A DNA stretch of 62,999 bases from Pseudomonadales bacterium (GCA_035500235.1 DATJXK010000177.1:1-62999); one strand, 5' to 3'. Counted from the stretch's first letter, positions 1,723 to 36,260 are shown. Numbers and translations are program-made. Notes: generated by a model not told the origin, from the sequence alone.

Positions 1723-1742
1723 CATCCCCGAAAGCGGGGATG
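1723..1742. promoter_or_regulatory. ATCCCC-loop-GGGGAT hairpin, copy A (CATCCCCG AAAG CGGGGATG)
   Basis: Perfect 8-bp inverted repeat. It lies 9 nt after the kinase stop (1752) and 107 nt upstream of the beta-helix glycosidase ATG (1615). There is no U-tract. Confidence 0.6.
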
Positions 1743-1751
1743 GCCGATTTA

Positions 1752-3446
1752 TCAAGCGGCAACAGGTTGCGGCTTAATGAATAGCTGCAGGCGGACCGTT
1801 GTGCCCGCGCCGGGCTGACTCTCAATCACACTGCTTCCGCCGATACTTTCCAGGCGCAGCTTGATGTTTTTCAATCCGTTGCCCGCCGGGCTGTCGGCAG
1901 GAATAAAGCCGCGGCCATTGTCCTGAACAGAAATGGTGAGAAACATTTTCTCAAACGTAATCCGAACGATAACTTCCGTGGCCTTGGCGTGTTTGATAAT
2001 ATTGTTTAACGATTCTTTGACGGCCAGGGTGATGTTATGCCGGATTTGACTGGAGACTTGAATGTCTTTGGGCAAGTCCTGGATGTCCAGGCGACAACCC
2101 AGTCCCGCCTGCTCGCATAACTGGTTTAGCATTTGGCACAAATAATTTCCCAGCGCATCGAGATTATCGTTTTCCGGATTTACGGCCCAAACCGTTTCAT
2201 AAAGCGCCGAGATCAAGTCGCGGGACATCTGGGAGATCTGGTCAAAGTCTGTCCGGGCTTTTTCCGGCAAGGATTGATTCCGATGGGCCATGGCGCTTAA
2301 CAGAGAAATCTGGGTGACGCGCGCGCCCAAATCATCGTGGATGTCATGGGCGATGCGGAGGCGTTCCTGTTCAAGGGCGCGTTGATTTCTAAGGTGCAAC
2401 ATTTCGCGGCGGGTCCTTTGCCAAACAATATATCGCATGATGGACATGATGATGAGGACAACCACCAAGGCAATGGCGCCAGAAAACCAGGGCTTCTTCC
2501 AATACGGTTCAGGGACAATAACGGCAAGCTGGGCATCAATGCCGGTGGGAACTCCCATGGCCGAGGTTTCTTGAACGTGAAATTGATAGGTGCCAAAGGG
2601 CAAAGAGTTATAGTAAGCCGCACCGACGGATCCCATGCCAATGCTATACATTTCATTCCACTCGACTACCAGATGATCGCCGGGAACCACTTTAGGGGCG
2701 AACTCCATGATATTATGCCATTCGGCGTGGCAGAACGGGTCGTTGTCCAGAATGCCAAATGCTGTCGTGGCGGGGTCTTTTCCTACTTCAACAATTTTGG
2801 CCATGCTGGGATGGGTCCCATCATGAATCCATCCTTCCGGCTGATAATTATCCGGATATTCCTTTTGAGCGGAATCAAAGGGAGAACGAAGGATCACTTC
2901 CGGCACACCATCTGCATGAACCCGGGAAACAACGAGATTATCGACGACGTACATGCCAACCGTGGCCGGGCCGCCGGCTGAGGAGATGACAATAAAAATC
3001 CGCGAAGCGAGGGGCGGGACAACGACTGTTTCGCGGCGGTGGGTAAGGAGGGAGGTTTTCAAACTCCCGTCCCAGCCGGGACTGTCGCCGCTGACAGTAA
3101 AAATGCTTTGGTTTACCTGGTCGCCTGCGTCATTGTAAAAACGAATGGTTAAATTCATTTCCCCGCCGACCTGCTGCCAGTTGTTATCGTAACCATCCAT
3201 CTTGTACCGCAAACGGATGGGAGCGCGGCCGGTATTGGCCGGTGGTCCGAAATTAAAAGAAATCGATTTAGGAAAAAGGCCGAGATCTACCTTGCCGCCG
3301 TTGATGGGAACGGGTTTGCCGTCAACTACCACTGCTTGAACCGTCAGGGGATTGCTATCAGAACTGCCAGCAGAATTTCCCGTTATGGGAAAAAAGCCAA
3401 TCTGGAGGAGAAAGACGGCCAGGACTGACGTTCTAAAACATTTCAT
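1752..3446 (-). CDS. Orphan sensor histidine kinase (Y_Y_Y-like extracytoplasmic domain, HisKA_3 + HATPase_c)
   Basis: 564 aa, ATG at 3446. N-terminal TM segment, then a sensor domain with IRLRYKMDGYDNNWQ (Y_Y_Y-like) and a second TM (AIALVVVLIIMSIMRYIVW). H-box RIAHDIHDDLGARV. ATPase boxes NNIIKHAKA, DNGRGF and GNGLKNI. No response regulator is adjacent. Confidence 0.85.
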   Translation of the reverse strand: MKCFRTSVLAVFLLQIGFFPITGNSAGSSDSNPLTVQAVVVDGKPVPINGGKVDLGLFPKSISFNFGPPANTGRAPIRLRYKMDGYDNNWQQVGGEMNLTIRFYNDAGDQVNQSIFTVSGDSPGWDGSLKTSLLTHRRETVVVPPLASRIFIVISSAGGPATVGMYVVDNLVVSRVHADGVPEVILRSPFDSAQKEYPDNYQPEGWIHDGTHPSMAKIVEVGKDPATTAFGILDNDPFCHAEWHNIMEFAPKVVPGDHLVVEWNEMYSIGMGSVGAAYYNSLPFGTYQFHVQETSAMGVPTGIDAQLAVIVPEPYWKKPWFSGAIALVVVLIIMSIMRYIVWQRTRREMLHLRNQRALEQERLRIAHDIHDDLGARVTQISLLSAMAHRNQSLPEKARTDFDQISQMSRDLISALYETVWAVNPENDNLDALGNYLCQMLNQLCEQAGLGCRLDIQDLPKDIQVSSQIRHNITLAVKESLNNIIKHAKATEVIVRITFEKMFLTISVQDNGRGFIPADSPAGNGLKNIKLRLESIGGSSVIESQPGAGTTVRLQLFIKPQPVAA

Positions 3447-3572
3447 TCTATTTCATCAATGTGGGCCGGGAATTTTCCGGCGCCACACGAGGGATACCAT
3501 CGAAAGGCTGGATTTTTTGTCACCACATTGCAACTTCATTTGTGGGGCAAGAATCATCGCAACCCATTTGCG

Positions 3573-5219
3573 TTATAGTGACCTGACACGGTAGAAACGG
3601 GCCGGATAGTTGGTCCACTGGTAATCAATGAAATGAAATGTTCCGTTGACAATACCGCCATTGGTAATCGCGTTCGTCTCCAGCGAAATCCAGTCTGGAT
3701 AAATCAAGTCTGTCGTAGCATCGACAATAAAAGGCCAATCAGCCCCGCAAATATTAAATCCAAACTCGTTGGATTTGAAACCGAAGTTTGGGTCGACCTG
3801 GATCTGCGCGTTCCAAGGCGGAAGCGGAAGAGGCGTAAAAGAAATATAGTCCGGATTAACCCCTCCATTGCCTCCTGAAAAGATGACAATGTTTGTTGGC
3901 CCGGGCCCGAGAGGAATTGTGAGTGTCGAATCTCCGGCAAATGAGCTCCATCCGCCGGTATTGAGGGTATTAATATACGAATAATCCTGGCCATTCACGG
4001 TGATTCGCAATTTGGTGCCATCGCCCTGGGTGGCAAAATGAACATCCATTGAATTCAATCCGCCGTGGGGGCCGCCGTCGACAGTGTTCAATTCAAAAAA
4101 AGTATTGGTAGTTAGATGCATATTCTGCACGCACCAACCATCCCACGCGGCGCCATCCCGGGTGAAAATTGAGCCGTTGCCAACCGTGCCATTGGTGACG
4201 GCGTAAATAGTAGTGTTGGTTGTGGGCGACGGCACCGGGCCATTGGCCGGCGGCCCATTTGTGGTCTGGACGACAGTCAGGATATTGCCGTTGCTGTCGA
4301 AGTTAAGCAGGTCAACGCAAATAGAACGCAAGCAACCGTTATCGGAAATGGCCTGGTTGTGATAGAACTGATACCATTGGCCGTGGAATTCCACAGCCGA
4401 GCCCTGGCTGGTGCTGCACCCGGTGGAAGACAGATAGACGCCTTTCGATGTCCACGGCCCCATCACATTGGTAGAGACGGCATATTCCAGTTGATTGAAG
4501 TTGGGGCTATTATCGGCGTAAGTGAGATAGTATAAATTGTTTCGCTTGAATACCCACGTACCTTCGTGGAAATCATTGAGGTTCGTGACAGCCTGGGGCG
4601 TTCCACTGATCGAAATCATATCCGGGTTCAGTTTGGCAACGGTGCAATTCCCGCCGCCGCCATAAAACAAATATGCCTGGCCATCGGTATCGACAAACAC
4701 ATCGGGATCAATCATCGAAAAACCGCCCTCGCCCTGGATATAATTCGTGAGCGGCGTGAAATCCCGGCCGGGGCTTAGACTGGTGGCGACGCCGATTCTC
4801 CAGGTGTTGTTCCAATTGGCATCGCTGGGATCGCTGGGATGCGGAAAATAGAAATAATATTTTCCGTTGGCATAGGCGCAATCCGGCGCCCACATAAACC
4901 CGCCGGGCGGGCCGCTCCAAGCCACCTGACTGGAGCGTAAAATCTCTCCCTCGTCACGCCAGTGAACCATGTCCGCCGTGGAAAAGACATGATAACGGTC
5001 CATCAAATTGCAGCCTTGCGGCGGGTCAATGTCGCGCGATGGATAAACATATAACCGTCCATCCGACCACACATGCGCGGCAGGGTCCGCGGTATAAATG
5101 CTGGTAATAAATGGGTTGCCGCCAAAACAGGTCATCGCCGTGGACGTTATCACAACCGATATGAGCAAAAGAGAGAGAGACTTTAACCTGGAACGATGAG
5201 TGTGGTGACTATTTAACAT
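3573..5219 (-). CDS. GH43 glycoside hydrolase (xylosidase/arabinofuranosidase type) with CBM6-like module and C-terminal FYRV domain
   Basis: 548 aa with a signal peptide. GH43 propeller motifs: YTADPAAHVWSDGRLYVYPS, MWAPDCAY, IDPDVFVDTDGQAYLFYGG and HEGTWVFK. Sugar-binding-like module: LRITVNGQDYSY..GGWSSF. The last 82 aa (3573-3821) end in ARFYRVRSL. Confidence 0.85.
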   Translation of the reverse strand: MLNSHHTHRSRLKSLSLLLISVVITSTAMTCFGGNPFITSIYTADPAAHVWSDGRLYVYPSRDIDPPQGCNLMDRYHVFSTADMVHWRDEGEILRSSQVAWSGPPGGFMWAPDCAYANGKYYFYFPHPSDPSDANWNNTWRIGVATSLSPGRDFTPLTNYIQGEGGFSMIDPDVFVDTDGQAYLFYGGGGNCTVAKLNPDMISISGTPQAVTNLNDFHEGTWVFKRNNLYYLTYADNSPNFNQLEYAVSTNVMGPWTSKGVYLSSTGCSTSQGSAVEFHGQWYQFYHNQAISDNGCLRSICVDLLNFDSNGNILTVVQTTNGPPANGPVPSPTTNTTIYAVTNGTVGNGSIFTRDGAAWDGWCVQNMHLTTNTFFELNTVDGGPHGGLNSMDVHFATQGDGTKLRITVNGQDYSYINTLNTGGWSSFAGDSTLTIPLGPGPTNIVIFSGGNGGVNPDYISFTPLPLPPWNAQIQVDPNFGFKSNEFGFNICGADWPFIVDATTDLIYPDWISLETNAITNGGIVNGTFHFIDYQWTNYPARFYRVRSL

Positions 5220-5324
5220 ACGCTTGGTAGCTACAGGGATAAATGAGGTGGTGGCGTGATCGCGTGGCGGAATGTGGACAATTATTAATCGTAAAAGTTT
5301 AATTGGTTATCACCGTTAGCGGTA

Positions 5325-5340
5325 TCCCCGAAAACGGGGA
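5325..5340. promoter_or_regulatory. ATCCCC-loop-GGGGAT hairpin, copy B (TCCCCG AAAA CGGGGA)
   Basis: 6-bp stem in the divergent region between the GH43 start (5219, 105 nt away) and the GH3 start (5392, 51 nt away). Confidence 0.55.
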
Positions 5341-5391
5341 CTGAGAATGAGTTGAGCTTCGGACAATGGCTTTGGTATTTTTTGCAAAATT

Positions 5392-8073: not shown

Positions 8074-8189
8074 GGACCGGCGTAGCGGGGGCTCATATTT
8101 GTGGCACTCTGCCGAAGCGCCGCTACGATCCGTCCTCGCCGAGGGTACAGTGTGGCAGGCGAGGATGAGAATGAGCATGACGATGATCT

Positions 8190-8480
8190 GCCCCAGGGGG
8201 GACCCCTTCCGTAGGCTTCCAAAGATCGGTTTATAGTTGATGGTTGAGAGTTGAGTGTAAGGGGAAAGTTTGATGACTGCAAAACTTGCGGGCAGGGCGC
8301 CTGCCCTACATCCCCGCCCCCCTTCCATAGGCTTCCGCAGCCTTCCGGAACATCAAATTACAAGGGTTTTTGCATTAGGCAAAGGTAGGTTGAGCGCGAT
8401 CTCCGAGCGTGCCGCCCCACCCCCGGGGGGTCTTGCTTAGGCTTGCATAGCCTTGCCTAGGGTTGCCTGGGCTTGCACGC
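8190..8480. repeat. Cluster of degenerate GC-rich short repeats (CCCC..CTTCCRTAGGCTTCC / CTTGCTTAGGCTTGC units) and the GGGCAGG-GCG-CCTGCCC hairpin
   Basis: Copies lie at 8203-8220, 8317-8348 and 8431-8478, with a hairpin at 8290-8306. No credible ORF is present. Confidence 0.5.
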
Positions 8481-8612
8481 GTTTGCCACCCACACGAAAG
8501 GAAAAAATGATTCTTTTTTTCTGAAAAACCCTTTAAAAGGTTTGAGAAGGCTTTAGAAGCCTTCGGTTCGAAAGGTGGACGAACTGATTTGTTCTCACCC
8601 CTCACCCTTGAT

Positions 8613-8637
8613 CCCTCTCCCCGTTGAGGGGAGAGGG
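8613..8637. repeat. GC-rich palindromic element CCCTCTCCCC GTTGA GGGGAGAGGG
   Basis: Perfect 10-bp stem in the gene-free region. Its left arm begins ATCCCTC, like hairpin copies G and H. Confidence 0.5.
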
Positions 8638-8818
8638 TGACCCTTCTTGGCCAAAGGCGCTACGAAGGACAGGCGAGAGACACGCGTGTCATGCCTGTTC
8701 CACTATATGTCAAAGAACGCAACGGGTATTTTACCACGGAACGTTTAGGTCGGAAGAGAAACTTGACTCCTAGTTGTTCACGCATTTTGTTTGTATTCCA
8801 TGGCAAATAAAATAAAAA

Positions 8819-8935
8819 GTCCCGGAGGGGACGGCAGAACCAGGTGTTTCTTTCGTCCCTGTGGTGACTCGAACGGTTTGGCTGGACCTTTCCCCAGCAC
8901 TAAAGTGCTGGGCTATTTTCAATTGTCCCTATGAT
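8819..8935. repeat. REP-like composite element (GTCCC GGAG GGGAC .. CCCAGCAC TAAA GTGCTGGG CTATTTTCAATTGTCCCT)
   Basis: Two perfect small palindromes lie at 8819-8832 and 8893-8912. From memory, the GTGCTGGGCTATTTTC..GTCCCT arrangement resembles intergenic repeat elements common in Planctomycetota/Verrucomicrobiota genomes. Only one copy is in this window. Confidence 0.4.
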
Positions 8936-9075
8936 CGACGACCGCGACGCATGCAACTGTAGTTCAAACCTCCCTGGCTTTTTAAGAATGGCTTCTGGAA
9001 CAGGGTGTTACCAGAGCTGGTGATCTTTTGCCTTAACCTATTCGCTCGCTGGGCGGAAGGCCCGGCGACCGCAGA

Positions 9076-10011: not shown

Positions 10012-10038
10012 AATCACTGACTACTATTTTCTAACGAG

Positions 10039-10072
10039 CTTCTTTGGCAGCCGGAAACGGCTGCCAAAGAAG
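10039..10072 (-). terminator. Intercistronic stem-loop between giant lectin 1 and pseudopilin 1 (attenuator/processing/stability element; not a canonical terminator)
   Basis: CTTCTTTGGCAGCCG GAAA CGGCTGCCAAAGAAG forms a perfect 15-bp stem with a GAAA tetraloop. It lies 18 nt after the stop at 10091 and 27 nt before the ATG at 10011. No U-tract follows on the minus strand. Confidence 0.55.
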
Positions 10073-10090
10073 TATCAACCACGGTCGTTC

Positions 10091-13000
10091 TTATTGGTGA
10101 ATCTGCACCAGATAGAAGCGATGGTTTACAGAGAGCGGATCGCTCACGGTCTGCACAGTATTATTACCGCTGATGGACGCGCCCAAAGGTGTCCACGCCG
10201 GATCCATCAGGTTATTTTTGTATTCGACCTGATAGGTCCATCCGGTCTGAGCAAAGAATGACAAGTGAAAGCTGCCGCCGCTAACACTCGTGGTGACATA
10301 GGGAGAGGGCGACGTGGGGGTCAAGAGGAGGAAGTTGACGTTCACTTCCTGTTCGCCGTTGACCGTGGTGCCTTGCAATTGCAGCGTCTGTTGATTGCCA
10401 GTCAGCGTGACTTTGGCAGGATTGCCATTGGCATCGTTGAGCATGACCCACTCGTAACTGGACCAACCCCCTAATGGGATGGAGAAGGTGCCCAGGGCGC
10501 GGGTGGTCTGAGACGGGGTTTGGTAACCGGCGGTCAGGATAGCGAGTCCGGCGTGAGTAGGCGCGGCGCCTTCAGCAAACCGTCCGATGACATTGTAAGT
10601 GCCCGCTGGATAATGGCGGGTATAATTGGCCCAGGAATCCTGGCCGAAGGAGCCCATGGCGTAATCGGTACCGGACGCGAATTGGGCCCTGGGCAAATCA
10701 CCCGAGGTTTGGTCGGGGAAATTGATGCCATTATTCGGGCGGTAAGCGTAAGGCCGGGAGAACGCATTGGGATCGGCTTCCAGCATATCGACGCCGGCCG
10801 TGCTTCCGAGATTGGCATAAGCATCAACCGAGTTATCGAAGAACTGGCCAGTAACTCCGCCACTGGTATAGTCGTAATCTTCGCCTTCCAACTGATAATC
10901 AGAAGCGCTGAAGGTGGCGAAGGAGTTGGTGTAAGCTGTGGTGCCCACGGAATCCGTCAGCACGACAATAGCGGTGTAGAGCTGATTCGTTGGAATTGCG
11001 CAGCTCACAGTAGAAGCAAACGCAGAGCCGCTAATGGTCAAACCGGACTGCTTCACGCCATTCAAATACAGCGAGATATTACCGGCAGTAAAGCCGACCG
11101 AAGAATTCGCCGTGAAACTCACGGTATTCGACGGCTGGAACATAGCGGTGCCATCCGGGCTGAAGTTGCTGACAAATGGCGGCGGATTATTATTCAGGTT
11201 GGCCGGCACGAGCATGTAGAAGTTCAGGTTACAACCTGCGTTGATAAACGACATTCTCAAGGTCTGCAGCACGTTGTTGGTACCGGCAAAGCGGGCGGGA
11301 TAACCGCCAGAATTCATGACCGGGCTCCAGGTGTATTTTTGCCAGTTACCCGTGGCGGGCGCGTTAAAGGTGCCCAATTGCGACAGGGTTTGATTGGCTG
11401 ATCCGTAACCACTGGTGACCAGGCTAAAGCTGCCGGCATTGGCCGTGGCATTACCGTTACCATTCGCGGACCGGACATAGATATTATATACTCCGGCGGG
11501 ATAATGCCGGGTGTAATTTCCCCATTGGCCACCCGAGGTAAAGCCAATGTCGAAGTCGATAAACGGAAGGTCGTCAATGGGATTGGTGGTATTGAGGTAA
11601 GACAGGCGAGGAATATCGCCATTGGGTTCAGTATTGAGGTTGGCGTCATCGCCGACAGTTCCACGGCTGTAGGAATTATGGCCCGGCCCACCCTGGCAGT
11701 ATGAATCGATATTTTCCACTCCGTTGTAGCCAAAATAAGCATTGGTTTGCGGATTATCGAAATAGCCACCGCCATTGTAGTCCCAATCTTCGGCTTCCCA
11801 TGTGTAATAGTTGGGATTAATGGTATCAAACGAAAGGGTGGCTGTGCTGCCATTGTTGGCACCGTCCGTGATAAGGAAGGTGAGCGAATAAACGGCATCT
11901 GTGGTCAACAGGAAGCTGACGCTTTTGTTGGTTGAATTTCCGGTGACAGTCAACCCGCTGGAGGGGGTGAGCGTTTGAGAGAAAGCGCCTCCCGTAAGGC
12001 TGTTTCCCTGGACTTCGACAACGATGTTGTTAACGCCGTTGCTGGAGATAACAGAACAATTAAAGGTGTTCGTTTGCTGGAATTGATAGGTACCATCGGG
12101 GAATTCGTTAGTTACGTAACCCGCACCGACCGGGGGAATATTGGTATTGAGCGGGAGCAACATGAAGAAGTTTTCATTACAATTTCCGCCATCAATGGTC
12201 ATGCGCAAGGTTGACGCGGTACCATCATTGGGAACGGTCAGCACCGCGGGACTGCCGGTGCTATCCACAAGAGAGTACCAACCGTAAGTCTGCCAGCCGG
12301 TCGATTTGACGGAATAGTAGTAAGGCCCCGAGTTGGCAAACGAAGCGGTACCAGCGACGACGGAGATATCACCGGCGTTGCTTTGGGGGCCGTTGCCGTC
12401 AGCGGCGCGCACGAATACGTTGTACTGCCCGGGAGGATAGTGGCGGGTATAGTTACCCCAGTTACCACCGTTATTGAAACCGAGATCGTAATCTGATTTG
12501 CCCGAACCCATGTAGGGCAAGCGCGGAACATCACCGGCGCCTTCGGTCTCCAAACCTTGAGGGCGATAGTCTGAGTTTCCTTGTCCGGGAGAAGTGTTGT
12601 TGTAATCCACTCCTGAGGTGGAGGCCTTGCCGGCGTAAGCATTGGTTTGAGGATTATCCACGAACAACCCGGCGATGCTATTGCTGGTAAAATCGAAATC
12701 TTCCGCTTCCCAGGTGTAGGCCGGCGAAATGGTGTCAAAGGAAAGGTTGTTGGTGGTGGAAGCGCTATTGATATCCGTCACGATAATCTGAGCGGCATAG
12801 AGCGTGTTGGTGATTAACGGAGCGGTAACATTTTGATTATTGGCGTTGCCGGTAATGGTCAACCCGCTGGAACTGGTCAGCGTTTGTGGAAAACCCTGCA
12901 CGCCAAACACGGTGGTGGGCGTGAGCTTTACGGAAACGTTGGCGATGCCAGCCGAGGACGCAGCGGTGAACGTCAGTGTTTTGGAATATTGGAACTGGTA

Positions 13001-13135
13001 TGAGCCGTTGGGAAATGCTCCTGAGATAGTTGGCTGAGCAATAGCACTCTGACCGAAGAAGGCCAGGGCTGCCACGAGGCCTACTGAGGATGCAAAGGAT
13101 TTCATTTGCGAAATAAATGGATGGTTCTTTTTCAT
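10091..13135 (-). CDS. Giant secreted non-catalytic protein: 3 x (Ig-like + CBM6/35-like module) + C-terminal FY.. domain
   Basis: 1014 aa with a signal peptide (SVGLVAALAFFGQSAIAQ). Three tandem ~300-aa modules lie at about nt 13033-12146, 12145-11198 and 11197-10316. Each has WEAEDFDF / WEAEDWDY / LEGEDYDY and W(G/A)NYTRHYP(P/A)G.YN(V/I). The 69-aa tail (10091-10300) ends in NHRFYLVQIHQ. Confidence 0.85.
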   Translation of the reverse strand: MKKNHPFISQMKSFASSVGLVAALAFFGQSAIAQPTISGAFPNGSYQFQYSKTLTFTAASSAGIANVSVKLTPTTVFGVQGFPQTLTSSSGLTITGNANNQNVTAPLITNTLYAAQIIVTDINSASTTNNLSFDTISPAYTWEAEDFDFTSNSIAGLFVDNPQTNAYAGKASTSGVDYNNTSPGQGNSDYRPQGLETEGAGDVPRLPYMGSGKSDYDLGFNNGGNWGNYTRHYPPGQYNVFVRAADGNGPQSNAGDISVVAGTASFANSGPYYYSVKSTGWQTYGWYSLVDSTGSPAVLTVPNDGTASTLRMTIDGGNCNENFFMLLPLNTNIPPVGAGYVTNEFPDGTYQFQQTNTFNCSVISSNGVNNIVVEVQGNSLTGGAFSQTLTPSSGLTVTGNSTNKSVSFLLTTDAVYSLTFLITDGANNGSTATLSFDTINPNYYTWEAEDWDYNGGGYFDNPQTNAYFGYNGVENIDSYCQGGPGHNSYSRGTVGDDANLNTEPNGDIPRLSYLNTTNPIDDLPFIDFDIGFTSGGQWGNYTRHYPAGVYNIYVRSANGNGNATANAGSFSLVTSGYGSANQTLSQLGTFNAPATGNWQKYTWSPVMNSGGYPARFAGTNNVLQTLRMSFINAGCNLNFYMLVPANLNNNPPPFVSNFSPDGTAMFQPSNTVSFTANSSVGFTAGNISLYLNGVKQSGLTISGSAFASTVSCAIPTNQLYTAIVVLTDSVGTTAYTNSFATFSASDYQLEGEDYDYTSGGVTGQFFDNSVDAYANLGSTAGVDMLEADPNAFSRPYAYRPNNGINFPDQTSGDLPRAQFASGTDYAMGSFGQDSWANYTRHYPAGTYNVIGRFAEGAAPTHAGLAILTAGYQTPSQTTRALGTFSIPLGGWSSYEWVMLNDANGNPAKVTLTGNQQTLQLQGTTVNGEQEVNVNFLLLTPTSPSPYVTTSVSGGSFHLSFFAQTGWTYQVEYKNNLMDPAWTPLGASISGNNTVQTVSDPLSVNHRFYLVQIHQ

Positions 13136-13188
13136 GGGTTGTTAGGCTGTTTCGAGTTTTAAAATAGCACTGTGCCCCTGTAAGAAAC

Positions 13189-13208
13189 TATCCCCGAAAG
13201 CGGGGATA
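13189..13208. promoter_or_regulatory. ATCCCC-loop-GGGGAT hairpin, copy C (TATCCCCG AAAG CGGGGATA)
   Basis: Perfect 8-bp stem, 53 nt upstream of the giant lectin ATG (13135). It is about 260 nt from the previous gene's stop, so it is not a 3'-end element. Confidence 0.6.
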
Positions 13209-13285
13209 TTATCACTTGACATTCTAAAGGACCTATTTAAGCCGCGAAACACGAGCGGGAGAGTCTCTATTTTAGACTTCAATTT

Positions 13286-13309
13286 CAGCACCCAAGGGGC
13301 TGTTTTTTT
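13286..13309 (+). terminator. Orphan plus-strand terminator-like hairpin + T7 tract
   Basis: CAGCACCC AA GGGGCTG forms a 6-bp stem with one bulge, followed by TTTTTTT. It lies in an intergenic region flanked only by minus-strand genes. Confidence 0.3.
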
Positions 13310-15192: not shown

Positions 15193-15260
15193 ATTTTGAA
15201 AAGTGCGCCGCGAAACGGCGGCGGGAAATTGTCTGCTTAAGAGCCTAAAATGCCCAGCGA

Positions 15261-16535: not shown

Positions 16536-16655
16536 TCGACTATCTTCCCATGCCAAGTAAAACCTGGATTTTTGGCCCATTTAAATTTCCGCTGAAACGT
16601 TTCATGTGATTATGCCACAGGTTATTAATATACAAATAAATGATTTCTTCGGGCA

Positions 16656-16671
16656 TCCCCGAAATCGGGGA
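16656..16671. promoter_or_regulatory. ATCCCC-loop-GGGGAT hairpin, copy D (TCCCCG AAAT CGGGGA)
   Basis: 6-bp stem, 10 nt after the GH3 stop (16682) and 120 nt upstream of the beta-helix glycosidase ATG (16535). Confidence 0.55.
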
Positions 16672-16681
16672 GCCGTGAAAT

Positions 16682-18931: not shown

Positions 18932-19028
18932 ACAAATCTTGATAGCCGCCATTGGCCCCAAATAAAACAATCTCTGCCAGCAATATCAATCCGCGCCTGC
19001 AAGCAATGATAAATAAAGTGGTTTGCAC

Positions 19029-21278: not shown

Positions 21279-21370
21279 TTTTTAAAGTAGATAGCAGGAC
21301 GTGATAATTCTGTTCCGATGATGCGCAATTGATATTCCCAGCCAAGCTAACTGGCCCAAAAATCGGCACA

Positions 21371-21388
21371 ATCCCCGTTTTGGGGGAT
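21371..21388. promoter_or_regulatory. ATCCCC-loop-GGGGAT hairpin, copy E (ATCCCC GTTTTG GGGGAT)
   Basis: 6-bp stem with a 6-nt loop, 92 nt upstream of the GH92 ATG (21278). Confidence 0.55.
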
Positions 21389-21459
21389 ACTTCCTTTTTG
21401 GGAAACCGGCCAGCGTCCGGGCCGTTACGAGAACCTTAGCATTAAGATTTTGCGGTTGG

Positions 21460-22407: not shown

Positions 22408-22440
22408 GCATGCATTGATACGTTCAAGGGGACGGGTCGT

Positions 22441-22462
22441 GCATCCCCAAAAGCGGGGATGC
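22441..22462. promoter_or_regulatory. ATCCCC-loop-GGGGAT hairpin, copy F (GCATCCCC AAAAGC GGGGATGC)
   Basis: 8-bp stem in the divergent region between the esterase ATG (22407, 33 nt away) and the DUF5703 ATG (22523, 60 nt away). Confidence 0.6.
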
Positions 22463-22478
22463 AAGGCAGAGCGAAAAA

Positions 22479-22492
22479 GGCACTATAGTGCC
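22479..22492. promoter_or_regulatory. Perfect 14-nt palindrome GGCACTATAGTGCC followed by ACAA
   Basis: Lies 30 nt upstream of the DUF5703 ATG. GGCAC-N5-TGCCACAA resembles the GGCAT-N5-GGCCACAA core of the 26-nt box. Confidence 0.35.
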
Positions 22493-22522
22493 ACAATATT
22501 CTACCAACAATTTCTTTTACCC

Positions 22523-24838: not shown

Positions 24839-24847
24839 ATGCAATTC

Positions 24848-27001
24848 TTACGGTGAACGATCTATCTTGGACAATTGACCATCCTTGTATGGTTTCAACG
24901 AATGGCTTGGAGTTCCTGTTGAAATCGTTGCAGTGCTGACAGGCGCATGCCAGACGAGTGAATCCTTCACGGATGTTTTGCCTTTATTACCAACGGCCAT
25001 AATCTCGTTTTTTCCCGGGGACAACGTCAACGGCCAGGTAAAAATGCAATTAGTGCTCGTCACTGTTCCCTGGGATTTGCCATTGAGGAAAAGTTCCACC
25101 GAATCGCAATTGGCATAGGCTTTAGCCATCACGCTATCGGTCAGGCGATTGGTAAAAGTATGGCCGGTAATGTAAACCATGGGATTCGTCGTCCAATTGG
25201 CCTTATAAAAATAGAACGCATCCTTGCGCGTCTTGCGGTCATAGGTCACAAGGCCTTTATCATTGCGGCCCGGGGTATCGCCTTCATTACGGCCGGCCAC
25301 AGCAAAATCAAACATCGTCCATTCGAATTTGCACCACAGGAACGGCCGCGCCTGCATCTGCTGCCAATGAATTTCGTGGTAGAGGTTCTCGTATTCTTCC
25401 GGATGATAATGGCTTTTGTTTTCGGGTTCGGTCACGGGGTTCTCGCTGTGCTGCATAACGCTGCCACCGGCGCCGTACTCACTCACACCAATGCAATGCG
25501 TGGGATAGTTGGAATGGATATTGTCCGCCCACGGACCAAACTCGCCCAGCTTGCCATTGTACCAGCCGAAGTATTTATTAATGGCATTCAATTCTGTACG
25601 CCAATTGGATGGCTCATCGTCGCTCGCGTTAGCGGCAGAAACGGTAAAGCGAGTGGGATCCTCCTGCGCGGCGAGTTGCGCCAGTTCAGTGACGAGTTTT
25701 ACCGGCTTGGGACCAGGCCTTAAAGTGATTTCATTGAACACGCCCCAGCAGACCACGGATGGATGGTTATAGCGCTGATGGATGAGTTCAGTGAGTTGTT
25801 GCTTGGCGCTCGCATAAAAGGCGGGAGATTCGGTGATGCGATTGATCAACGGGATTTCGCTCCAAACAACAATTCCATATTGGTCGGCAAGCTGATACTC
25901 GTAATCGTTGTGCTCATAGTGGGACATGCGGACGGCGGTGGCCCCAATTTCTCTCAGCAACTTGAAGTTTGTTTCTCGCTCCGCGTCCGATACGGCCCAG
26001 CCGTGATTGGGCCAATCCTGGTGCATGCTGACGCCGTGAAGGTCGTAGTGGCAGCCGTTGAGGAAAAAGCCTTTGTTCGGATCCACACTGAAATAACGAA
26101 AGCCCAACCGCTGGGTGATAACGTCCACAACTTTTGAGCCGCGACATAATTCAACATGTGTTTGATATAAATACGGATCGGCGAGGCCATTCCACAGATG
26201 AGGATTGGGGATAGTCGTGGCGGCGATGATGTTTGAGGCCGATTGCGGGGGGAGAGTCGCGATGTTCGTGAGAACGGCGACAATTTTTTTGTCAGCGTCG
26301 GTGACGATGCTACGGACCATGATGGATTGCGCGGCCGCCGTCGAGTTCGAGATCACGGCGGTGACTTGAAGCTGCGCGGAATTGGAGCTGACATCGGTCG
26401 TTTTTAAATAGACTCCTGAGGAACTATAGTTCAGCGGCGAGATTTGCACGGGATCGGTGACCAACAGATGAACATCGCGATAGAGGCCGCCAAAAAAGGT
26501 AAAATCAGCGTCAAGCGGAGGGATGTTGGTGTTGACGGCATTGCTGACTTTGACCGCAATGACGTTGTCCTTGCCAGGATGAAGATAAGGAGTGGCATCA
26601 TAAGTAAATGCCGAAAAACCGCCCTGATGCTCGCCTAAAAAACTGCCATTGATGTAAACGTCCGTGACAAGGAATGCCCCGTCAAATTTGAGGAACAAAT
26701 GACGGTCCCGCTCGCTCCGGCTCACGGAAAGGTGTTTTCGATACCAGCCAATACCGCGGTAATAATTCGTATTACCTTCCTGGCCGTCATAATTATTCCA
26801 GGTATGCGGCAGGTTCAATTTGGTCCATGAGGCATCGTCAAAGGACGCGTCTTGCGCGCCGGCGACGTCCTGCCGGATGAATTTCCAGCCGGAATCCAAA
26901 TTTACATCCTGCCGGTTACCTTTGGCCGGATGATAATTCTGCGCGACCACCGGCATCGCCAGGAGCGTAAGGAGAACGGTTGCCAGATAAATTCGAATCA
27001 T
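24848..27001 (-). CDS. GH2 glycoside hydrolase (beta-galactosidase/beta-glucuronidase family)
   Basis: ATG at 27001 (MIRIYLATVLLTLLAMPVVAQ). Alternative starts are at 27028 and 27049. Motifs: NLPHTWN, RMSHYEHNDYEYQLADQYGIVVWSEIP, NHPSVVCWGVFNE and SEYGAGG. Confidence 0.9.
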   Translation of the reverse strand: MIRIYLATVLLTLLAMPVVAQNYHPAKGNRQDVNLDSGWKFIRQDVAGAQDASFDDASWTKLNLPHTWNNYDGQEGNTNYYRGIGWYRKHLSVSRSERDRHLFLKFDGAFLVTDVYINGSFLGEHQGGFSAFTYDATPYLHPGKDNVIAVKVSNAVNTNIPPLDADFTFFGGLYRDVHLLVTDPVQISPLNYSSSGVYLKTTDVSSNSAQLQVTAVISNSTAAAQSIMVRSIVTDADKKIVAVLTNIATLPPQSASNIIAATTIPNPHLWNGLADPYLYQTHVELCRGSKVVDVITQRLGFRYFSVDPNKGFFLNGCHYDLHGVSMHQDWPNHGWAVSDAERETNFKLLREIGATAVRMSHYEHNDYEYQLADQYGIVVWSEIPLINRITESPAFYASAKQQLTELIHQRYNHPSVVCWGVFNEITLRPGPKPVKLVTELAQLAAQEDPTRFTVSAANASDDEPSNWRTELNAINKYFGWYNGKLGEFGPWADNIHSNYPTHCIGVSEYGAGGSVMQHSENPVTEPENKSHYHPEEYENLYHEIHWQQMQARPFLWCKFEWTMFDFAVAGRNEGDTPGRNDKGLVTYDRKTRKDAFYFYKANWTTNPMVYITGHTFTNRLTDSVMAKAYANCDSVELFLNGKSQGTVTSTNCIFTWPLTLSPGKNEIMAVGNKGKTSVKDSLVWHAPVSTATISTGTPSHSLKPYKDGQLSKIDRSP

Positions 27002-27076
27002 GCCTTTCAAATGAAATATGCGGCCCATATCAGGGACAGTTTTTGACATAAGATAAATACGCCAAGATGTTTATAC

Positions 27077-27094
27077 ATCCCTCTTTCGAGGGGT
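27077..27094. promoter_or_regulatory. Hairpin copy G, compensatory variant (ATCCCTC TTTC GAGGGGT)
   Basis: 7-bp stem including one G-U pair. It abuts the response-regulator stop codon (27095) and lies 75 nt upstream of the GH2 ATG (27001). Relative to copies A-F, both arms changed together: CCCCG/CGGGG became CCCTC/GAGGG. Confidence 0.55.
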
Positions 27095-27748
27095 TCATAT
27101 AAGAGATTTGGAACGTCCCTGGAGATGGATGATCCCGCGCTGGATGGCCGTGGTGACCGCTTCAGTGCGGTCGGCGACCTGGAGCTTTCCAAGGATATTT
27201 TTTAAATGATCTTTTACGGTGTGTTCGGAAATGTTCAAGGTATCGGCGATTTCCTTGTTGGCGCGGCCCTTGGCCAGCTCGTTTAACACATCCACTTCGC
27301 GGGAGGTCAATTGCTCGCGAATTTTTCGCAACTCAAGCTGGCTGGCGACGTCCTTGGGAATCCAATTTTGGCCGGCGGCAACAGTGCGGAGCGCGGGGAC
27401 TAATTTATCACCGGTCGTATTTTTCAAGACATATCCCTGGGCGCCTGCCTGGAGCGCGCGGTAAATATCTTCGTCTCCATCAAACGCGCTCAAAACCAAA
27501 ATACGCGCGTCGGGAAATTCAACACGGATTTCGCCGATGGTTTGGATTCCGCCTTTGCCAGGCATTCTTAAATCGAGCAAAAGTAAATCGGGACGGTGGC
27601 GGGTAAACAACGTGAGGGCTTCATTGCCGTCCGCCGCTTCGGCAACGACTTCCATGTCGGCCTCGGTATTCACGAGCGCCGTCAACCCCATGCGAACGAT
27701 GTAGTGGTCGTCCGCGATCAATATTCGAATTTTATCTGATTTTTTCAC
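27095..27748 (-). CDS. NarL/FixJ-family response regulator (REC + LuxR-type HTH)
   Basis: 217 aa with a GTG start at 27748. The start overlaps the kinase stop by 4 nt (GTGA). REC motifs: ILIADDH and LLLLDLRMPG. HTH: LTSREVDVLNELAKGRANKEIADTLNISEHTVKDHLKNILGKL. Confidence 0.92.
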   Translation of the reverse strand: MKKSDKIRILIADDHYIVRMGLTALVNTEADMEVVAEAADGNEALTLFTRHRPDLLLLDLRMPGKGGIQTIGEIRVEFPDARILVLSAFDGDEDIYRALQAGAQGYVLKNTTGDKLVPALRTVAAGQNWIPKDVASQLELRKIREQLTSREVDVLNELAKGRANKEIADTLNISEHTVKDHLKNILGKLQVADRTEAVTTAIQRGIIHLQGRSKSLI

Positions 27749-30009
27749 GCGATGGTAGAAGCATCCTGACTGGTGGCTGCCTGAAGTTCCAGGTCCGAGT
27801 GCAACGGAATATTCACCCGAACCAGGGTTCCTTTTCCGGGCTGGCTGGAAACAGTAAACTGGCCGCCAATGCGTTTGGCGCGCTCAGACATCCCCAGCAG
27901 GCCGAAGTGACCTTCGTTGGGACCGACGGCGGTTTCGCGATCAAACCCAACGCCATTGTCTTTGACCTGCAGGCTTACCTGTTTCCGTTCGAATTGCAGT
28001 TCCATATCCACATCAGTAGCCCGGGAGTGCTTGATGATATTGGCGAGGGCTTCCTGGCCGATGCGGAGGAGATTTTCTTCCACGACTTCCGGAAGCGCCT
28101 GCGGTTCGCCCCGGGTTTCAAGCCGGACTTTGATATCGGTGCCGCAAGTGATTTGCCGCGAGCCTTCCGCCAAGGCGCTGGACAAATCGAATTGCTCCAG
28201 GGCGCGGCTGCGCAGGTCCCAAACGGAGCGACGGACTTCTATTTGGCCGCGGGCCATCATGCTGCGCGCCAGTTCCAGATGATGCAGCGAATTATCCGGC
28301 TTGCGATCATGCAGTTTGGAGGCGGTATCCAACTGCAAGGCGATGCCGGTGAGGGTTTGTTCGACCGTATCGTGCAGTTCCTGTGCCAGGCGGGTTCGTT
28401 CCGTCAAAACGGCTTTGAACTGCACTTCGGATTCTTTACGGGCGGTAATCTCAAATTTTAATTGTTCTGTCCGCTCTTTGACGCGCAGTTCGAGATCGTC
28501 GTGCGCCTGTTGAAGGGCGGTTTGCGCTTTTTCCCGGTCGCGAATGGCAAAATTTAACGCGGCATTCTTTCGTGAAAGGATCAGCGTCCAGCTCACAATG
28601 ATAAACAACGCCGAACTCAGGATAAGAAAACCAATTAAAAGGCGATGGGGGGTAAGCCAGCTAGGCTTTTTTAGGACAACTACATCATCGGCATCAGGAA
28701 TAAGGATCTGCAACGATTGCAATTTGCCGGCATTGTCAATTTGGGTGAGGGCGATTCCATTTACCTTCACCGTGCTGCCGATGGCGAGGCTGGCCAATTG
28801 CGCCTGGCCGGGAGCATTTTCCGCAACAGCCGTGTAGGTGAAATTGCTGCTTTGCAATACCAGCACTGTTCGTCCGGGCGTGGTGGCCGTGCCGGCGTTG
28901 ACAGTCAGGTCAATGAGGCTGCCGGAAATAGAAACATAGGTGGCGTGGTAAAGACCGTTTTCCACGTCCTGAGCCGTAGCCGGCTGAGGCTGCATGGGGA
29001 CAGGCTCCTGCTGGGACCTTTCGATAATGGCATCCTGCAAAACGGGAAGATAATTCTCAAAACTCAAAAAGCCCACGGCGTCCACAACATCGCCCGGGTT
29101 CAGCTCGGTTCGTTGGCGTGTTTGCACCTGGAGGCCGAATGTTCCATTTTGCAGAAAAACACGCTCACCCGGCTGTTGAAAGACCACGACGCCGTGAACA
29201 TGGACCCGTTGGGCCAGGGAATTGTCCGGACGAAACTGGGCCAGCTTATTGAGCGGGACAACCGGGCGATCAAAGGGATTGATTGATTCGGGTTTTTCAA
29301 TGACCAGGTCCGACGAATTGGGAATATAAATTTCCACGGCGATCAACTGGCGCAGGGAGCGATTGTGTGCTTCCGCCGCCGTGCCGCGGACCAACGCCTG
29401 CGCGCCGATGAGGGCTTTTGGTTCGAATCCTGAAGCCGAAGGCAGGAATGCACGGAAGCGGTAGCCGCCGCTGGCCATATCCAGCGTCAGCCGGCCGCCA
29501 TCCAGGCGGGCGTCACGAATGATTCCCGAAATTTCTATTCTCTGGCTGTCCTCGGCGCCGGACATCAATTGTTCGATGGAAACAGGTTTGGCGAGTGGCA
29601 AGGGACCTTTTTTTAAAATATGCACGGTAGGCGCGGTCACTGTAGGGGCGAATGCACCGGCGTAGGTGATTCCGGAAATTTCCACTACATCGCCCGGGTC
29701 CACGTGAAGGCCGTTGATATTGTCTACGAATACGCCGCCGGTGGAATCCTGGAAGAAAAAGCGGCCTTTCAAAACAGGATCGGAAGCGGTGACTACGCCG
29801 GTGACATGGACTTTCAACATGCGCGAGGCCTGTTCGGCGGGCAACGAAATGACATCGGCGGCGTTGGTCAAAACGGGGACGGCTGGCTGGGCAAAAACGG
29901 GAGCAGCAAAAAACAGGAGACAAAAACAAAAGCCCCGAAACAGCGCCGGGCAGAAACCGGCGTCCAAGGCAGAAACGCTCAAACTTTTATGCCTGTTGAT
30001 AATCTTCAC
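27745..30009 (-). CDS. Sensor histidine kinase (large periplasmic domain, HisKA_3 + HATPase_c), partner of the NarL-type regulator
   Basis: 754 aa. The first codon at 30009 is GTG, so the exact start is uncertain. A ~440-aa extracytoplasmic region carries repeated OB-like segments (VHVTGVVT..PGDVVEISG and VHVHGVVV..PGDVVDAVG), followed by a TM and a coiled coil. H-box RLAQELHDTVEQ. ATPase boxes ANIIKHSRA, DNGVGF and GHFGLLGM. Confidence 0.88.
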   Translation of the reverse strand: MKIINRHKSLSVSALDAGFCPALFRGFCFCLLFFAAPVFAQPAVPVLTNAADVISLPAEQASRMLKVHVTGVVTASDPVLKGRFFFQDSTGGVFVDNINGLHVDPGDVVEISGITYAGAFAPTVTAPTVHILKKGPLPLAKPVSIEQLMSGAEDSQRIEISGIIRDARLDGGRLTLDMASGGYRFRAFLPSASGFEPKALIGAQALVRGTAAEAHNRSLRQLIAVEIYIPNSSDLVIEKPESINPFDRPVVPLNKLAQFRPDNSLAQRVHVHGVVVFQQPGERVFLQNGTFGLQVQTRQRTELNPGDVVDAVGFLSFENYLPVLQDAIIERSQQEPVPMQPQPATAQDVENGLYHATYVSISGSLIDLTVNAGTATTPGRTVLVLQSSNFTYTAVAENAPGQAQLASLAIGSTVKVNGIALTQIDNAGKLQSLQILIPDADDVVVLKKPSWLTPHRLLIGFLILSSALFIIVSWTLILSRKNAALNFAIRDREKAQTALQQAHDDLELRVKERTEQLKFEITARKESEVQFKAVLTERTRLAQELHDTVEQTLTGIALQLDTASKLHDRKPDNSLHHLELARSMMARGQIEVRRSVWDLRSRALEQFDLSSALAEGSRQITCGTDIKVRLETRGEPQALPEVVEENLLRIGQEALANIIKHSRATDVDMELQFERKQVSLQVKDNGVGFDRETAVGPNEGHFGLLGMSERAKRIGGQFTVSSQPGKGTLVRVNIPLHSDLELQAATSQDASTIA

Positions 30010-30094
30010 GATAATTTATTGGTTGGTGAGCGTCAACCGATAGAAGAAAGACCCGGCGCTTCCGGCCGTACCGACTTCGTCGCAAAAATAGACG

Positions 30095-31105: not shown

Positions 31106-31179
31106 TTTTAACTCATTCCCTCCGTCTCCTTTTGGATTCAACGCTTAAAAATACTGGTTATAGTTTTGCGCCAATTTAG

Positions 31180-31995: not shown

Positions 31996-32026
31996 CTTTG
32001 CTGGTATCTCAAATATCTTTGGTTTC

Positions 32027-32054
32027 GCCGTCGCCCCTCTTTCAGGGCGACGGC
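32027..32054 (-). terminator. Intercistronic stem-loop between giant lectin 2 and pseudopilin 2
   Basis: GCCGTCGCCC CTCTTTCA GGGCGACGGC forms a perfect 10-bp stem. It lies 23 nt after the stop at 32078 and 31 nt before the ATG at 31995. The geometry matches 10039-10072, and there is no U-tract. Confidence 0.5.
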
Positions 32055-32077
32055 ATTGACACATCCCTGGCTGTCGA

Positions 32078-35000: not shown

Positions 35001-36094
35001 GAAGAAACGTCTATGTTATTTAGTTTGAGATCGATATTCGTCAGGCCAAATCCGCTGGGAGCGATAGCGGTAAATACGAATTTATTTGTCGCCTGCAGGA
35101 GCGACGTGCCATCTGGATAGGGCCCGCTGATAGAGGGTATCTTGGGAGCAATGGTTTGGCGAATGCCTTCGACGAAGCTCAGCTTGTTTGTCGCGATGCC
35201 TTTATAGAAACGAAAATCCTCCATCCAGCCGTCAAATCCGCGAGCGCCTTTGTAATTTCGATTGCCGACGACGAGCGTGGTGGGATTGCCAAAGGTCTCG
35301 ACCAAGCCGGGAGCAGCAAACTGATTTTGGAGGGCCGCCGCCGCCGTGTCTGAACCGGTATATTGATAGATGTTTGTCCCGTCGTAAACCCAGGCCACAA
35401 AATACCATTTATTAGTGGTGAGATCGCTGGCGTACGTGGTGGTCAGAGTGCCGCCGGCCGTGCTCCCGATGGCGAAAATAAATTGATTCGCCTGCTGGAA
35501 TTTCACGCCGATGGAATTAGCGCTGCCGTCATTCGCGCCCGGCGAGCCTCCCGCGCTCAGCACAAAAGGCCGGGGAAGCACAAAACCAGAGCCGCTCGGC
35601 GCTTTCACCGGCTGGTTAAACCAGAAGGTCACGATGAAATTTGAAACGCTGCCAAAAGCCAGTGCGGGATCTCCTAAATCAGCCGCAGAATTGGCGGCGT
35701 TGGCAGTCGTCGGCGGATTCGGCGCGTTGGCCGGCTGGCTTCCCCCGGCTCCGTTAGTCATGCACAACGTCGCCATCCCGGTCACCAACCCATTTACTCC
35801 CGACCCGGCGGCGCCCTGGAAATCAGTACTCGCACCGGCAGCATTGTATGCGCTCAGGTTGACACTGATGCCCCCGAGCGTTGTGGAGCTAGGGAAGCTC
35901 GTCGTCGCCGTGCCCGGTGCATTGGTAAGGGGGAAAAACAGCAAGTTAACCGGTTGAGCCAGCGCCAGCGTGCTCATCAGGAGGCCGCAAAAAATCAGTG
36001 CGGCCAGCAGCTTCCCGAGGACGGTTTTAAACCATTCATTACTAGACAGAAATGAATGACGGATATCTGAAGAATCAATGGGATCGGTTCTCAT
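32078..36094 (-). CDS. Giant secreted non-catalytic protein: LamG + 3 x (Ig-like + CBM6/35-like module) + C-terminal FY.. domain (paralogue of 10091-13135)
   Basis: 1338 aa with a signal anchor ([18 protein letters not shown]). N-terminal LamG: [27 protein letters not shown]. Three modules carry KAEEFDF / FEAEAFDF / WEAEDFDF and W(Q/E/I)(N/Q)YT(K/R/H)T(F/W)P.G.Y(N/Y)(V/L)YAR. The 69-aa tail (32078-32287) ends in [10 protein letters not shown] and aligns with the tail of 10091-13135. Confidence 0.85.
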
Positions 36095-36244
36095 ACAGGC
36101 GTTTGGGTTGGCAGTTAGGCTAAATGACTATGAACTTAGGGCTATCGTTAGTTGTTCTGTAATTTCTATTGGCGGCACTTAATGGGCCGGTCTGCGTATT
36201 TCAGGCTATGAAAAGAACCTAGCAGCACGGCCTAAGTGTAAGCA

Positions 36245-36260
36245 TCCCTCTTTCGAGGGG
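36245..36260. promoter_or_regulatory. Hairpin copy H, compensatory variant (TCCCTC TTTC GAGGGG), overlapping a second GGGGG-TTTT-CCCCC hairpin
   Basis: It lies in the divergent region between the giant lectin 2 ATG (36094) and the dehydrogenase ATG (36420). The G-run at 36057..62 cannot pair both ways: bases 36057-36062 can pair with CCCTC (36046-50) or with CCCCC (36067-71), i.e. coordinates 36257-36262 versus 36246-36250 or 36267-36271. Confidence 0.5.

Follow-up and report, generated by a model that had tools for sequence, protein, structure and literature searches.

What is the role of a short palindrome that recurs eight times in the intergenic DNA of carbohydrate-active enzyme (CAZyme) and lectin genes? 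The question was raised by a stretch of 62,999 nucleotides (GCA_035500235.1 DATJXK010000177.1:1-62999, hereafter the window, at its full length), which is filed under Pseudomonadales bacterium and most likely belongs to an uncultured soil Verrucomicrobium. An initial annotation had left three options, namely an operator for a dimeric regulator, a hairpin acting in 5' untranslated regions (5'-UTRs), or a repetitive extragenic palindromic (REP) element. The operator option is now strongly supported, because of the spacing to a -10-like hexamer, the linkage to a regulator, the co-variation with the recognition helix of that regulator, and the presence of the element in orthologous CAZyme promoters; the 5'-UTR hairpin and the REP element are unsupported. 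We consider with good confidence that the eight copies are operators of response regulators of the NarL/FixJ family, placed at promoters that would depend on an activator. As a kind of switch the element is not new, but for uncultured Verrucomicrobia and their CAZyme islands it is described here for the first time.

All eight copies described initially are present (A to H, Table 1), and each is intergenic and ahead of a gene start, as had been claimed. Copies A and C are an identical 18-mer, 17 nt are identical between G and H, and the core shared by the eight is TCCCY-N6-RGGGR. This core is found at 8 sites of the window (14 strand matches), as compared to 1.12 expected from dinucleotide shuffles, a count attained by 0 of 100 shuffles, and no copy of it lies inside a window gene. 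The stricter pattern proposed at first gives 3 matches in the window, for 0.02 expected. Three copies, A, D and G, are in addition found 1-11 nt past the stop codon of a preceding minus-strand gene (respectively the kinase gene 1752-3446, a glycoside hydrolase family 3 (GH3) gene ending ~10 nt before D, and the regulator gene 27095-27748), a point on which the initial annotation was silent. This is explained by the orientation of the genes, nearly all of which are on the minus strand from 1 to 49 kb, as indicated by Pfam annotation together with the genes called on an overlapping ENA contig. A purely 3' placement of copy A relative to the kinase gene was dropped, as the copy is ~105 nt upstream of a minus-strand gene that leaves the window at its start.

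Table 1. The eight copies with their -10-like hexamers and predicted targets, and the two-component genes of the window.
Feature	Position	Strand	Sequence or domains	-10-like hexamer	Predicted target
Copy A	1723-1742 (dyad 1724..1741)	minus	CATCCCCG-AAAG-CGGGGATG; canonical dyad ATCCCCGAAAGCGGGGAT	TACGTT 1695-1700, minus; inferred transcription start ~1688	GH87-type alpha-1,3-glucanase, start ~1615, past window start; minus
Copy B	5325-5340 (dyad 5324..5341)	minus	TCCCCG-AAAA-CGGGGA; canonical dyad	TAAACT 5296-5301, minus	GH43 (3573-5219), probably HK1 downstream; minus
Copy C	13189-13208 (dyad 13190..13207)	minus	TATCCCCG-AAAG-CGGGGATA; canonical dyad	TATTTT 13161-13166, minus	1014-aa lectin-like "lectin 1" (10091-13135) and the N_methyl gene after it; minus
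Copy D	16656-16671 (dyad 16655..16672)	minus	TCCCCG-AAAT-CGGGGA; canonical dyad	TATATT 16627-16632, minus	PF12708 beta-helix enzyme (15261-16580); minus
Copy E	21371-21388	minus	ATCCCC-GTTTTG-GGGGAT; given as ATCCCCGTTTTGGGGGAT	TAGCTT 21344-21349, minus	GH92 (19029-21278); minus
Copy F	22440-22463 (dyad 22443..22460)	unstranded	TGCATCCCC-AAAAGC-GGGGATGCA; ATCCCCAAAAGCGGGGAT in divergent region	TATAGT 22484-22489, plus (DUF5703/GH95-like side); TATCAA 22415-22420, minus (esterase side)	DUF5703/GH95-like (start ~22613), plus; possibly esterase (start ~22407), minus, through TATCAA
Copy G	27078-27093 (dyad 27077..27094)	minus	TCCCTC-TTTC-GAGGGG; second dialect	TATCTT 27050-27055, minus	GH2 (24848 to ~27001/27049); minus
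Copy H	36245-36260 (dyad 36244..36261)	minus	16-mer identical to G; same dialect	TAGGTT 36216-36221, minus	operon lectin 2 - N_methyl - GH16 - HK2 - RR2, 36094 down to 27095; minus
HK1	1752-3446	minus	sensor histidine kinase: Y_Y_Y, HisKA_3, HATPase_c (Pfam)		
RR2	27095-27748	minus	Pfam Response_reg and GerE; helix SEHTVKDHLKNIL; stop codon abuts G		
HK2	27745-29967	minus	HisKA_3 histidine kinase, paired with RR2		

Is the element confined to this window, and does it travel with a given regulator? An exact scan for the 18-mer ATCCCCGAAANCGGGGAT, with one genome per species, brought up at least 118 loci, ~21 of them from Verrucomicrobia, with many unrelated phyla among the matches listed; these figures speak for enrichment and are not copy numbers. 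Several of the loci (loci from other genomes are designated hereafter by L and a number) hold 2-4 copies within 8 kb. The gene at 1752-3446, first described as an enzyme gene, encodes in fact a Y_Y_Y/HisKA_3 histidine kinase according to Pfam, named here HK1, and six of the loci fetched with the 18-mer, from metagenome-assembled genomes (MAGs) of Verrucomicrobia, encode HK1 orthologues (47-58% identity) and, directly after them, a NarL/GerE regulator. The regulators of these six loci share 65-92% identity with each other, and 32-36% with RR2, the response regulator of the window. A set free of ascertainment bias was then made of 80 metagenome loci (612 kb) fetched solely via alignment of HK1 orthologues, and in this set TCCCC-N6-GGGGA with an A/T-rich centre is found 68 times, versus 0.2 in shuffles. 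HK1 orthologues (36-70% identity) are nearly all followed by a NarL/GerE regulator, and the canonical site is present in their loci: upstream of the histidine kinase (HK) gene, of an operon-heading gene for a 467-aa protein, or of an inverted regulator gene, but also between the HK and response regulator (RR) genes in one subclade, and past the RR gene ahead of the next gene. The 55 intergenic sites of these loci fall in 28 divergent, 24 tandem and 3 convergent contexts. Another 23 of the 82 sites in relatives were called "genic", but unreliably so, as the open reading frame (ORF) picker over-extends in GC-rich DNA, and several of the 23 are clearly upstream of HK genes.

The distance separating the element from the start codon (30-152 nt) was uninformative until another spacing emerged. 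In all eight copies of the window, a TAnnnT hexamer is found 22-24 nt from the core, always on the start-codon side, i.e. on the gene-bearing minus strand for seven copies, and on the plus side for F. The same holds in the 80 HK1 loci, where TAnnnT peaks sharply at offset 23, with 37 occurrences, followed by 14 at offset 24, the other offsets between 0 and 59 having 1-2 each; if either side is accepted, 56 of 80 sites carry the hexamer at offset 23 +/- 1. As a control, a TAnnnT at 22-24 was sought near 18-mer sites, and found for 15 of 25 in Verrucomicrobia versus 19 of 100 in other genomes, without a peak in the latter. A position matrix was built from 62 sites having offset 23, and gives aTCCCCG.TTTcGGGGAT-N22-TAnnnT: information is high in both arms and essentially nil in the spacer, and the matrix contains neither a -35 hexamer nor a T-run past the stem. 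The operator consensus is therein aTCCCCG-nTTT-CGGGGAT, an 18-bp dyad organised as a 7-4-7 inverted repeat. TAnnnT is probably the -10 element; with its first base set at -12, the 16-bp core would cover ~-51 to -36 and the dyad would be centred at -43.5. For the eight window sites, the centres so deduced range from -42.5 to -44.5, relative to predicted transcription starts at 1688, 5289, 13154, 16620, 21337, 22496, 27043 and 36209 (A to H). Because of this position and of the missing -35, the effect of the bound regulator would be activation rather than repression. A sigma-54-type reading (TGG-N9-TGC) of the flanks of A and C, made by eye, had the wrong spacing, and generic promoter and terminator scans of positions 1-38000 performed no better than on shuffles.

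This geometry bears directly on the proposal that the element acts as a transcribed RNA hairpin, either as a stabiliser or processing site in the 5'-UTR, or as a terminator devoid of U-tract or a 3'-end protector of the upstream cistron. All copies do fold stably (-9 to -17 kcal/mol, z-scores -2 to -5), the location of A, D and G just after stop codons is as a 3'-end element would have it, and pairing is kept in symmetric arm variants. Such a hairpin would nevertheless precede the -10-like hexamer by 22-24 nt, and so would not be part of the transcript to be controlled. Moreover, the inner pair (core positions 6/11) is often unpaired in relatives, e.g. TCCCCTAAAACGGGGA, with uncompensated mismatches in ~20% of sites, and it is the exact sequence, beyond pairing, that is kept across genomes whose proteins are 40-60% identical. 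Only 3 of 55 intergenic sites are convergent, and L201, in which RR2 faces a convergent gene, has no site past RR2, a gap which argues against a terminator role. Plain terminators had been rightly rejected from the start: in addition to this gap, no T-run follows the stem, and the terminator scan stays at shuffle level. The true intercistronic hairpins of the window (10039-10072, 32027-32054) have long and unique stems, and no Rfam family was matched at gathering threshold in the whole window. The A-rich or T-rich centre was also tried as a sign of strandedness, hence of RNA. The T-tract points towards the -10 in 69 of 91 sites and is reversed in 22, including E, G and H, and because the orientation is inherited in orthologous promoters, it provides no argument for RNA. 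Altogether, we regard the RNA hairpin as very unlikely.

If the element is instead an operator, as we favour, a change in the regulator should be mirrored in both half-sites. HK1 loci without the canonical core carry, at orthologous positions, symmetric variants of it: TCCTC-N6-GAGGA in L145, L152, L153, L159, L162 and L163, and TACCC-N6-GGGTA in L146 and L157. In loci with canonical TCCCC..GGGGA, the recognition helix of the regulator is ETVRTYVKNIC. It begins with TTVR in 4/4 of the TCCTC..GAGGA loci having a regulator sequence (L152, L159, L162, L163), and is ETVR(T/A)HAKNIC in the two TACCC..GGGTA loci. The change of E to T thus accompanies CCCC to CCTC, that of V to A accompanies CCCC to ACCC, and the RR2 paralogue accompanies the CG to TC dialect of copies G and H. 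Since the L162 regulator has its higher identity with canonical regulators (70%, as compared to 64-65% with the other TTVR proteins), the switch from E to T and to TCCTC may have happened twice. Both half-sites shift together, as expected of a dimer with a changed helix, and they therefore look compensatory without any RNA being involved. Compensation in G and H had been invoked initially in favour of selection on structure or dyad symmetry: the dyad symmetry stands, RNA pairing and two independent events do not, G and H amounting within the window to a single variant type, given their 17-nt identity.

Conservation also extends to the promoters of the presumed target genes. The canonical site precedes orthologues of the GH87 and DUF5703 genes in other MAGs, as well as GH3, GH2, N_methyl and CBM6 proteins, and the DUF5703 orthologues of L122 and L134 are preceded by a core identical to that of copy F, TCCCCAAAAGCGGGGA.

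Copies G and H, read towards the -10, are CCCCTC-GAAA-GAGGGAT, i.e. CCCCTCGAAAGAGGGAT, and form a separate dialect. They bracket the operon lectin 2 - N_methyl - GH16 - HK2 - RR2, of which H is the predicted promoter element; H driving this operon would imply autoregulation. HK2 has many orthologues labelled Verrucomicrobiia or Limisphaerales, and a G/H-type site, with a 22-nt spacing to TAnnnT, was found beside HK2-RR2 orthologues in four genomes (L200, L201, L204 and L205). L200 and L201 have it ahead of the lectin gene, L200 and L204 in the gap separating RR2 from GH2, and in L205 its distal arm is degenerate. The two dialects segregate by loci. No canonical site was found in seven HK2 loci (~140 kb), including L203, whose MAG has two of them in L035, and no G/H-type site was found in the 612 kb of HK1 loci. 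The RR2 helix is conserved, and differs from that of the regulators accompanying HK1 (RR1 type). For these two reasons, the proposal that the regulator encoded at 27095-27748 binds the palindromes can be retained for part of them: RR2 is a good candidate, and the likely binder, for G and H, not for A-F. Copies A-F match the operator of another NarL-type regulator, the usual partner of HK1, which would be encoded outside the window.

Could the palindrome simply be a dispersed repeat, of the REP or MITE (miniature inverted-repeat transposable element) kind, spread without regulatory role by a transposase of the RAYT type (REP-associated tyrosine transposase) or by recombination? As in REP elements and bacterial interspersed mosaic elements (BIMEs), we are dealing with short, GC-rich intergenic palindromes in many copies, and the identity of A with C, or of G with H, is what spreading would leave. 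However, unlike in REP and BIME, the placement is on the promoter side, the distance to the -10 is fixed even though flanks and 23-nt spacer are unconserved, and one regulator family is linked to the element. REP elements, which are species-specific in sequence, dispersed at very high copy number and accompanied by a RAYT transposase, prefer 3' ends or convergent regions, and from convergent 3' regions the present element is depleted. It is kept in orthologous promoters across distant MAGs, the same 16-18-mer being present where the HKs are only 36-70% identical, it keeps to one two-component system, whose recognition helix varies along with it, and it is lacking, in its canonical form, from the HK2 loci. 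No transposase was seen in Pfam scans of the window. A repeat of this kind is extremely unlikely.

For the operator reading that we prefer, the following mechanism can be proposed. A glycan-derived signal would be sensed by the periplasmic Y_Y_Y/HisKA_3 kinase of HK1 type, which would phosphorylate a NarL-type regulator (REC and GerE helix-turn-helix); the regulator dimer would bind the operator and recruit RNA polymerase. Canonical copies A-F would be served by the HK1-type system, with the regulator gene elsewhere, and G/H by HK2-RR2 (27095-29967), acting on its own lectin-GH16-HK2-RR2 operon and on GH2. Both the assignment of regulators to dialects and the nature of the signal are inferred.

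Several points weigh against this reading, starting with the stable folding mentioned above; a secondary RNA role on read-through transcripts is compatible with the data. No sequencing run was found that contains positions 19000-28000. The RR1-type regulator expected for A-F is missing from the window, and likewise from L120, the closest relative. In both of them HK1 (70% identity) is without adjacent response regulator, unlike in nearly all other orthologous loci, and in this clade the adjacent regulator was either lost or moved. A TAnnnT at offset 21-25 is missing in 24 of 80 sites of the HK1 loci, some of which have nATnnT instead. In NarL, the residues of helix alpha-9 that read bases are K188, V189 and K192 (PMC10853779). 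Aligned with NarL, the co-varying changes fall at the positions equivalent to S185 and V191 of this helix, which adjoin these base-contacting residues but miss them. Lastly, the co-variation stems from few evolutionary events, and the patterns used in site searches favour symmetric arms.

Some of these points would suit a promoter element read by another factor, for example an alternative sigma factor with an upstream element, or a dimeric repressor, encoded at an unlinked locus, with its operator. Any occupant of the -35 region would fit a fixed -10 spacing without -35, and the regulator for A-F is not in the window. Yet a sigma -35 element would not be expected to show dyad symmetry, dozens of loci link the palindrome to HK-RR genes, and such a factor would leave unexplained the helix/half-site co-variation, seen in at least 2-3 lineages, plus the dialect of the RR2 paralogue. 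NarL itself acts from -43.5. We therefore judge another factor quite unlikely, and return to the NarL/FixJ-type operator.

The whole could be summed up as two paralogous NarL-type systems with distinct dialects (ATCCCCG-N4-CGGGGAT and CCCCTC-GAAA-GAGGGAT), interleaved in one island for the degradation of fungal cell-wall glycans, with a readable helix code and with the adjacent regulator of HK1 lost. For this composite picture, our confidence stays slightly on the doubtful side. If it were true, a GerE-type helix code would follow, in which E to T goes with C to T at half-site position 4, and V to A with C to A at position 2; six promoters of the island would then rely on cross-talk, or on a regulator whose gene lies elsewhere.

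How does this switch compare with known ones? The NarL heptamer is TACYYMT. The regulator architecture is the same here as for the NarL 7-2-7 operators (yeaR, ogt), i.e. REC and a GerE/LuxR helix-turn-helix, with VraR, NarL, DesR and DevR as best PDB matches of these regulators, and in both cases the site consists of two C-rich heptamers in inverted orientation. The E. coli yeaR promoter has a single activating NarL 7-2-7 site centred at -43.5 (PMC10853779). In the present promoters, as at yeaR, a single dimer site adjoins the -35 region, with the same centre as predicted from the -10 spacing. Differences are the spacer (4 bp, 7-4-7, instead of 2 bp), the half-sites (ATCCCCG or CCCCTC), the sensor (here a periplasmic kinase of the Y_Y_Y type in place of NarX/NarQ) and the predicted regulon (CAZymes, not nitrate respiration). 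Protein identity to NarL is low, with 136-169 bits for an NCBIfam NarL cut-off of 250. Other palindromic boxes of NarL/FixJ-family regulators are the lux/tra box of LuxR/TraR at ~-42.5, the ComA box (6-4-6) and the DosR/DevR box. They too receive a GerE-type dimer on an 18-20-bp dyad, over or next to the -35, with a 4-bp spacer also for ComA, but half-sites, signals (acyl-homoserine lactones, peptides, hypoxia) and phyla are different. The hybrid two-component systems (HTCS) of Bacteroides, which govern polysaccharide utilisation loci, resemble the present ones by their Y_Y_Y periplasmic sensor, the adjacent glycoside-hydrolase loci and the regulator gene embedded in the locus. HTCS are however single polypeptides with AraC-type output, whereas here a HisKA_3 kinase and a separate NarL-type regulator are found; SusC/SusD genes are absent here, and there are N_methyl (prepilin-like) and lectin genes, typical of bacteria of the Planctomycetes-Verrucomicrobia-Chlamydiae (PVC) group. 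A literature search on the motif strings and on Verrucomicrobia promoter motifs returned nothing relevant.

Which genes, then, would be controlled? The initial count, from proximity to the palindromes, was 11 genes; on the basis of the -10 geometry, support is limited to 8-9 transcription units. The GH3-CBM6 gene (5392, on the plus side of copy B) and the dehydrogenase gene (36273) have no correctly spaced -10 box, and their status as targets is unsupported. The region 1-1722 had been taken as non-coding, because the ORF lister omits a gene running off the window edge. On the minus strand, positions 1-1615 are stop-free from an ATG near 1615, share 73-75% protein identity with large genes of related loci, and match PF22815 (CatAgl_D1, the D1 domain of alpha-1,3-glucanase). 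They encode the N-terminal 538 aa of a GH87-type alpha-1,3-glucanase, a conserved regulon member in relatives. GH76, GH125, GH16 and GH127 are encoded in the rest of the island, and this content suggests fungal cell-wall glycans as the substrate.

Concerning GH2, the first ATG of the ORF (27049) is upstream of the inferred transcription start (~27043). Another ATG, at 27001, is preceded by GAAAGG and followed by a signal-peptide-like sequence, MIRIYLATVLLTLLAMPVVAQ, and is the more likely start.

Verrucomicrobia are abundant glycan degraders of soil and freshwater, mostly uncultured, and to our knowledge almost nothing is known of the transcriptional control of their large CAZyme repertoires. 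The promoter model, operator + 23 bp + TAnnnT, offers a regulon rule for scanning MAGs of the Limisphaerales type, and can predict co-induced enzymes (GH87, GH92, GH43, GH2, GH16, DUF5703/GH95-like, lectin/N_methyl). The three operator variants with matching helix changes form a natural series for the study of DNA-recognition rules in the NarL/FixJ family. As for annotation, a GH87 gene overlooked at the edge of the window is added, and the GH2 start is corrected.

Two further observations were made in HK1 loci. In the subclade formed by L165, L166, L167, L171 and L192, the operator located between the HK and RR genes is ~36 nt past the HK stop, nATnnT is at offset 23, and the RR start is ~25-30 nt beyond, which suggests that the regulator gene has an autoregulated promoter of its own inside the operon. 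The conserved 467-aa protein (L083:4661-6061, L104:6315-7715, L133, L142, L147 and others) heads or neighbours the HK-RR operon, with the operator upstream in many MAGs. It has no homologue in the window and no Pfam family above threshold, only a weak GH99-like match (21.7 bits).

Outside Verrucomicrobia, the 18-mer, mostly with a GGTTTC or GAAACC centre, is present in nine Sphingomonas loci (L014, L015, L016, L034, L067, L076, L090, L100 and L113), which are probably unrelated to the verrucomicrobial system. L009, a contig from an uncultured Clostridia MAG, holds six TCCCCG-N4-CGGGGA-like palindromes within 6 kb, a different clustered repeat.

Elsewhere in the window, positions 8074-9075 form ~1 kb without convincing ORF between convergent genes, with no homology to any fetched locus. 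This segment contains repeats of 10-nt period, e.g. CTTGCCTAGG repeated 4.5 times at 8432-8476, and a palindrome with a 10-bp stem at 8613-8637. At 8893-8924, a sub-threshold match to the Rfam Acido-Lenti-1 RNA (28.8 bits for a gathering threshold of 37, E 2.7e-4) looks like a hairpin followed by a T-tract. Finally, long, unique and GC-rich hairpins occupy short intercistronic gaps at 10039-10072, 15205-15224 and 32027-32054, with stems of 15, 7 and 10 bp, respectively, and GAAA-like loops, two of them directly between a lectin gene and the next N_methyl gene. These are possibly structures that stabilise or attenuate the mRNA, unrelated to the operator.

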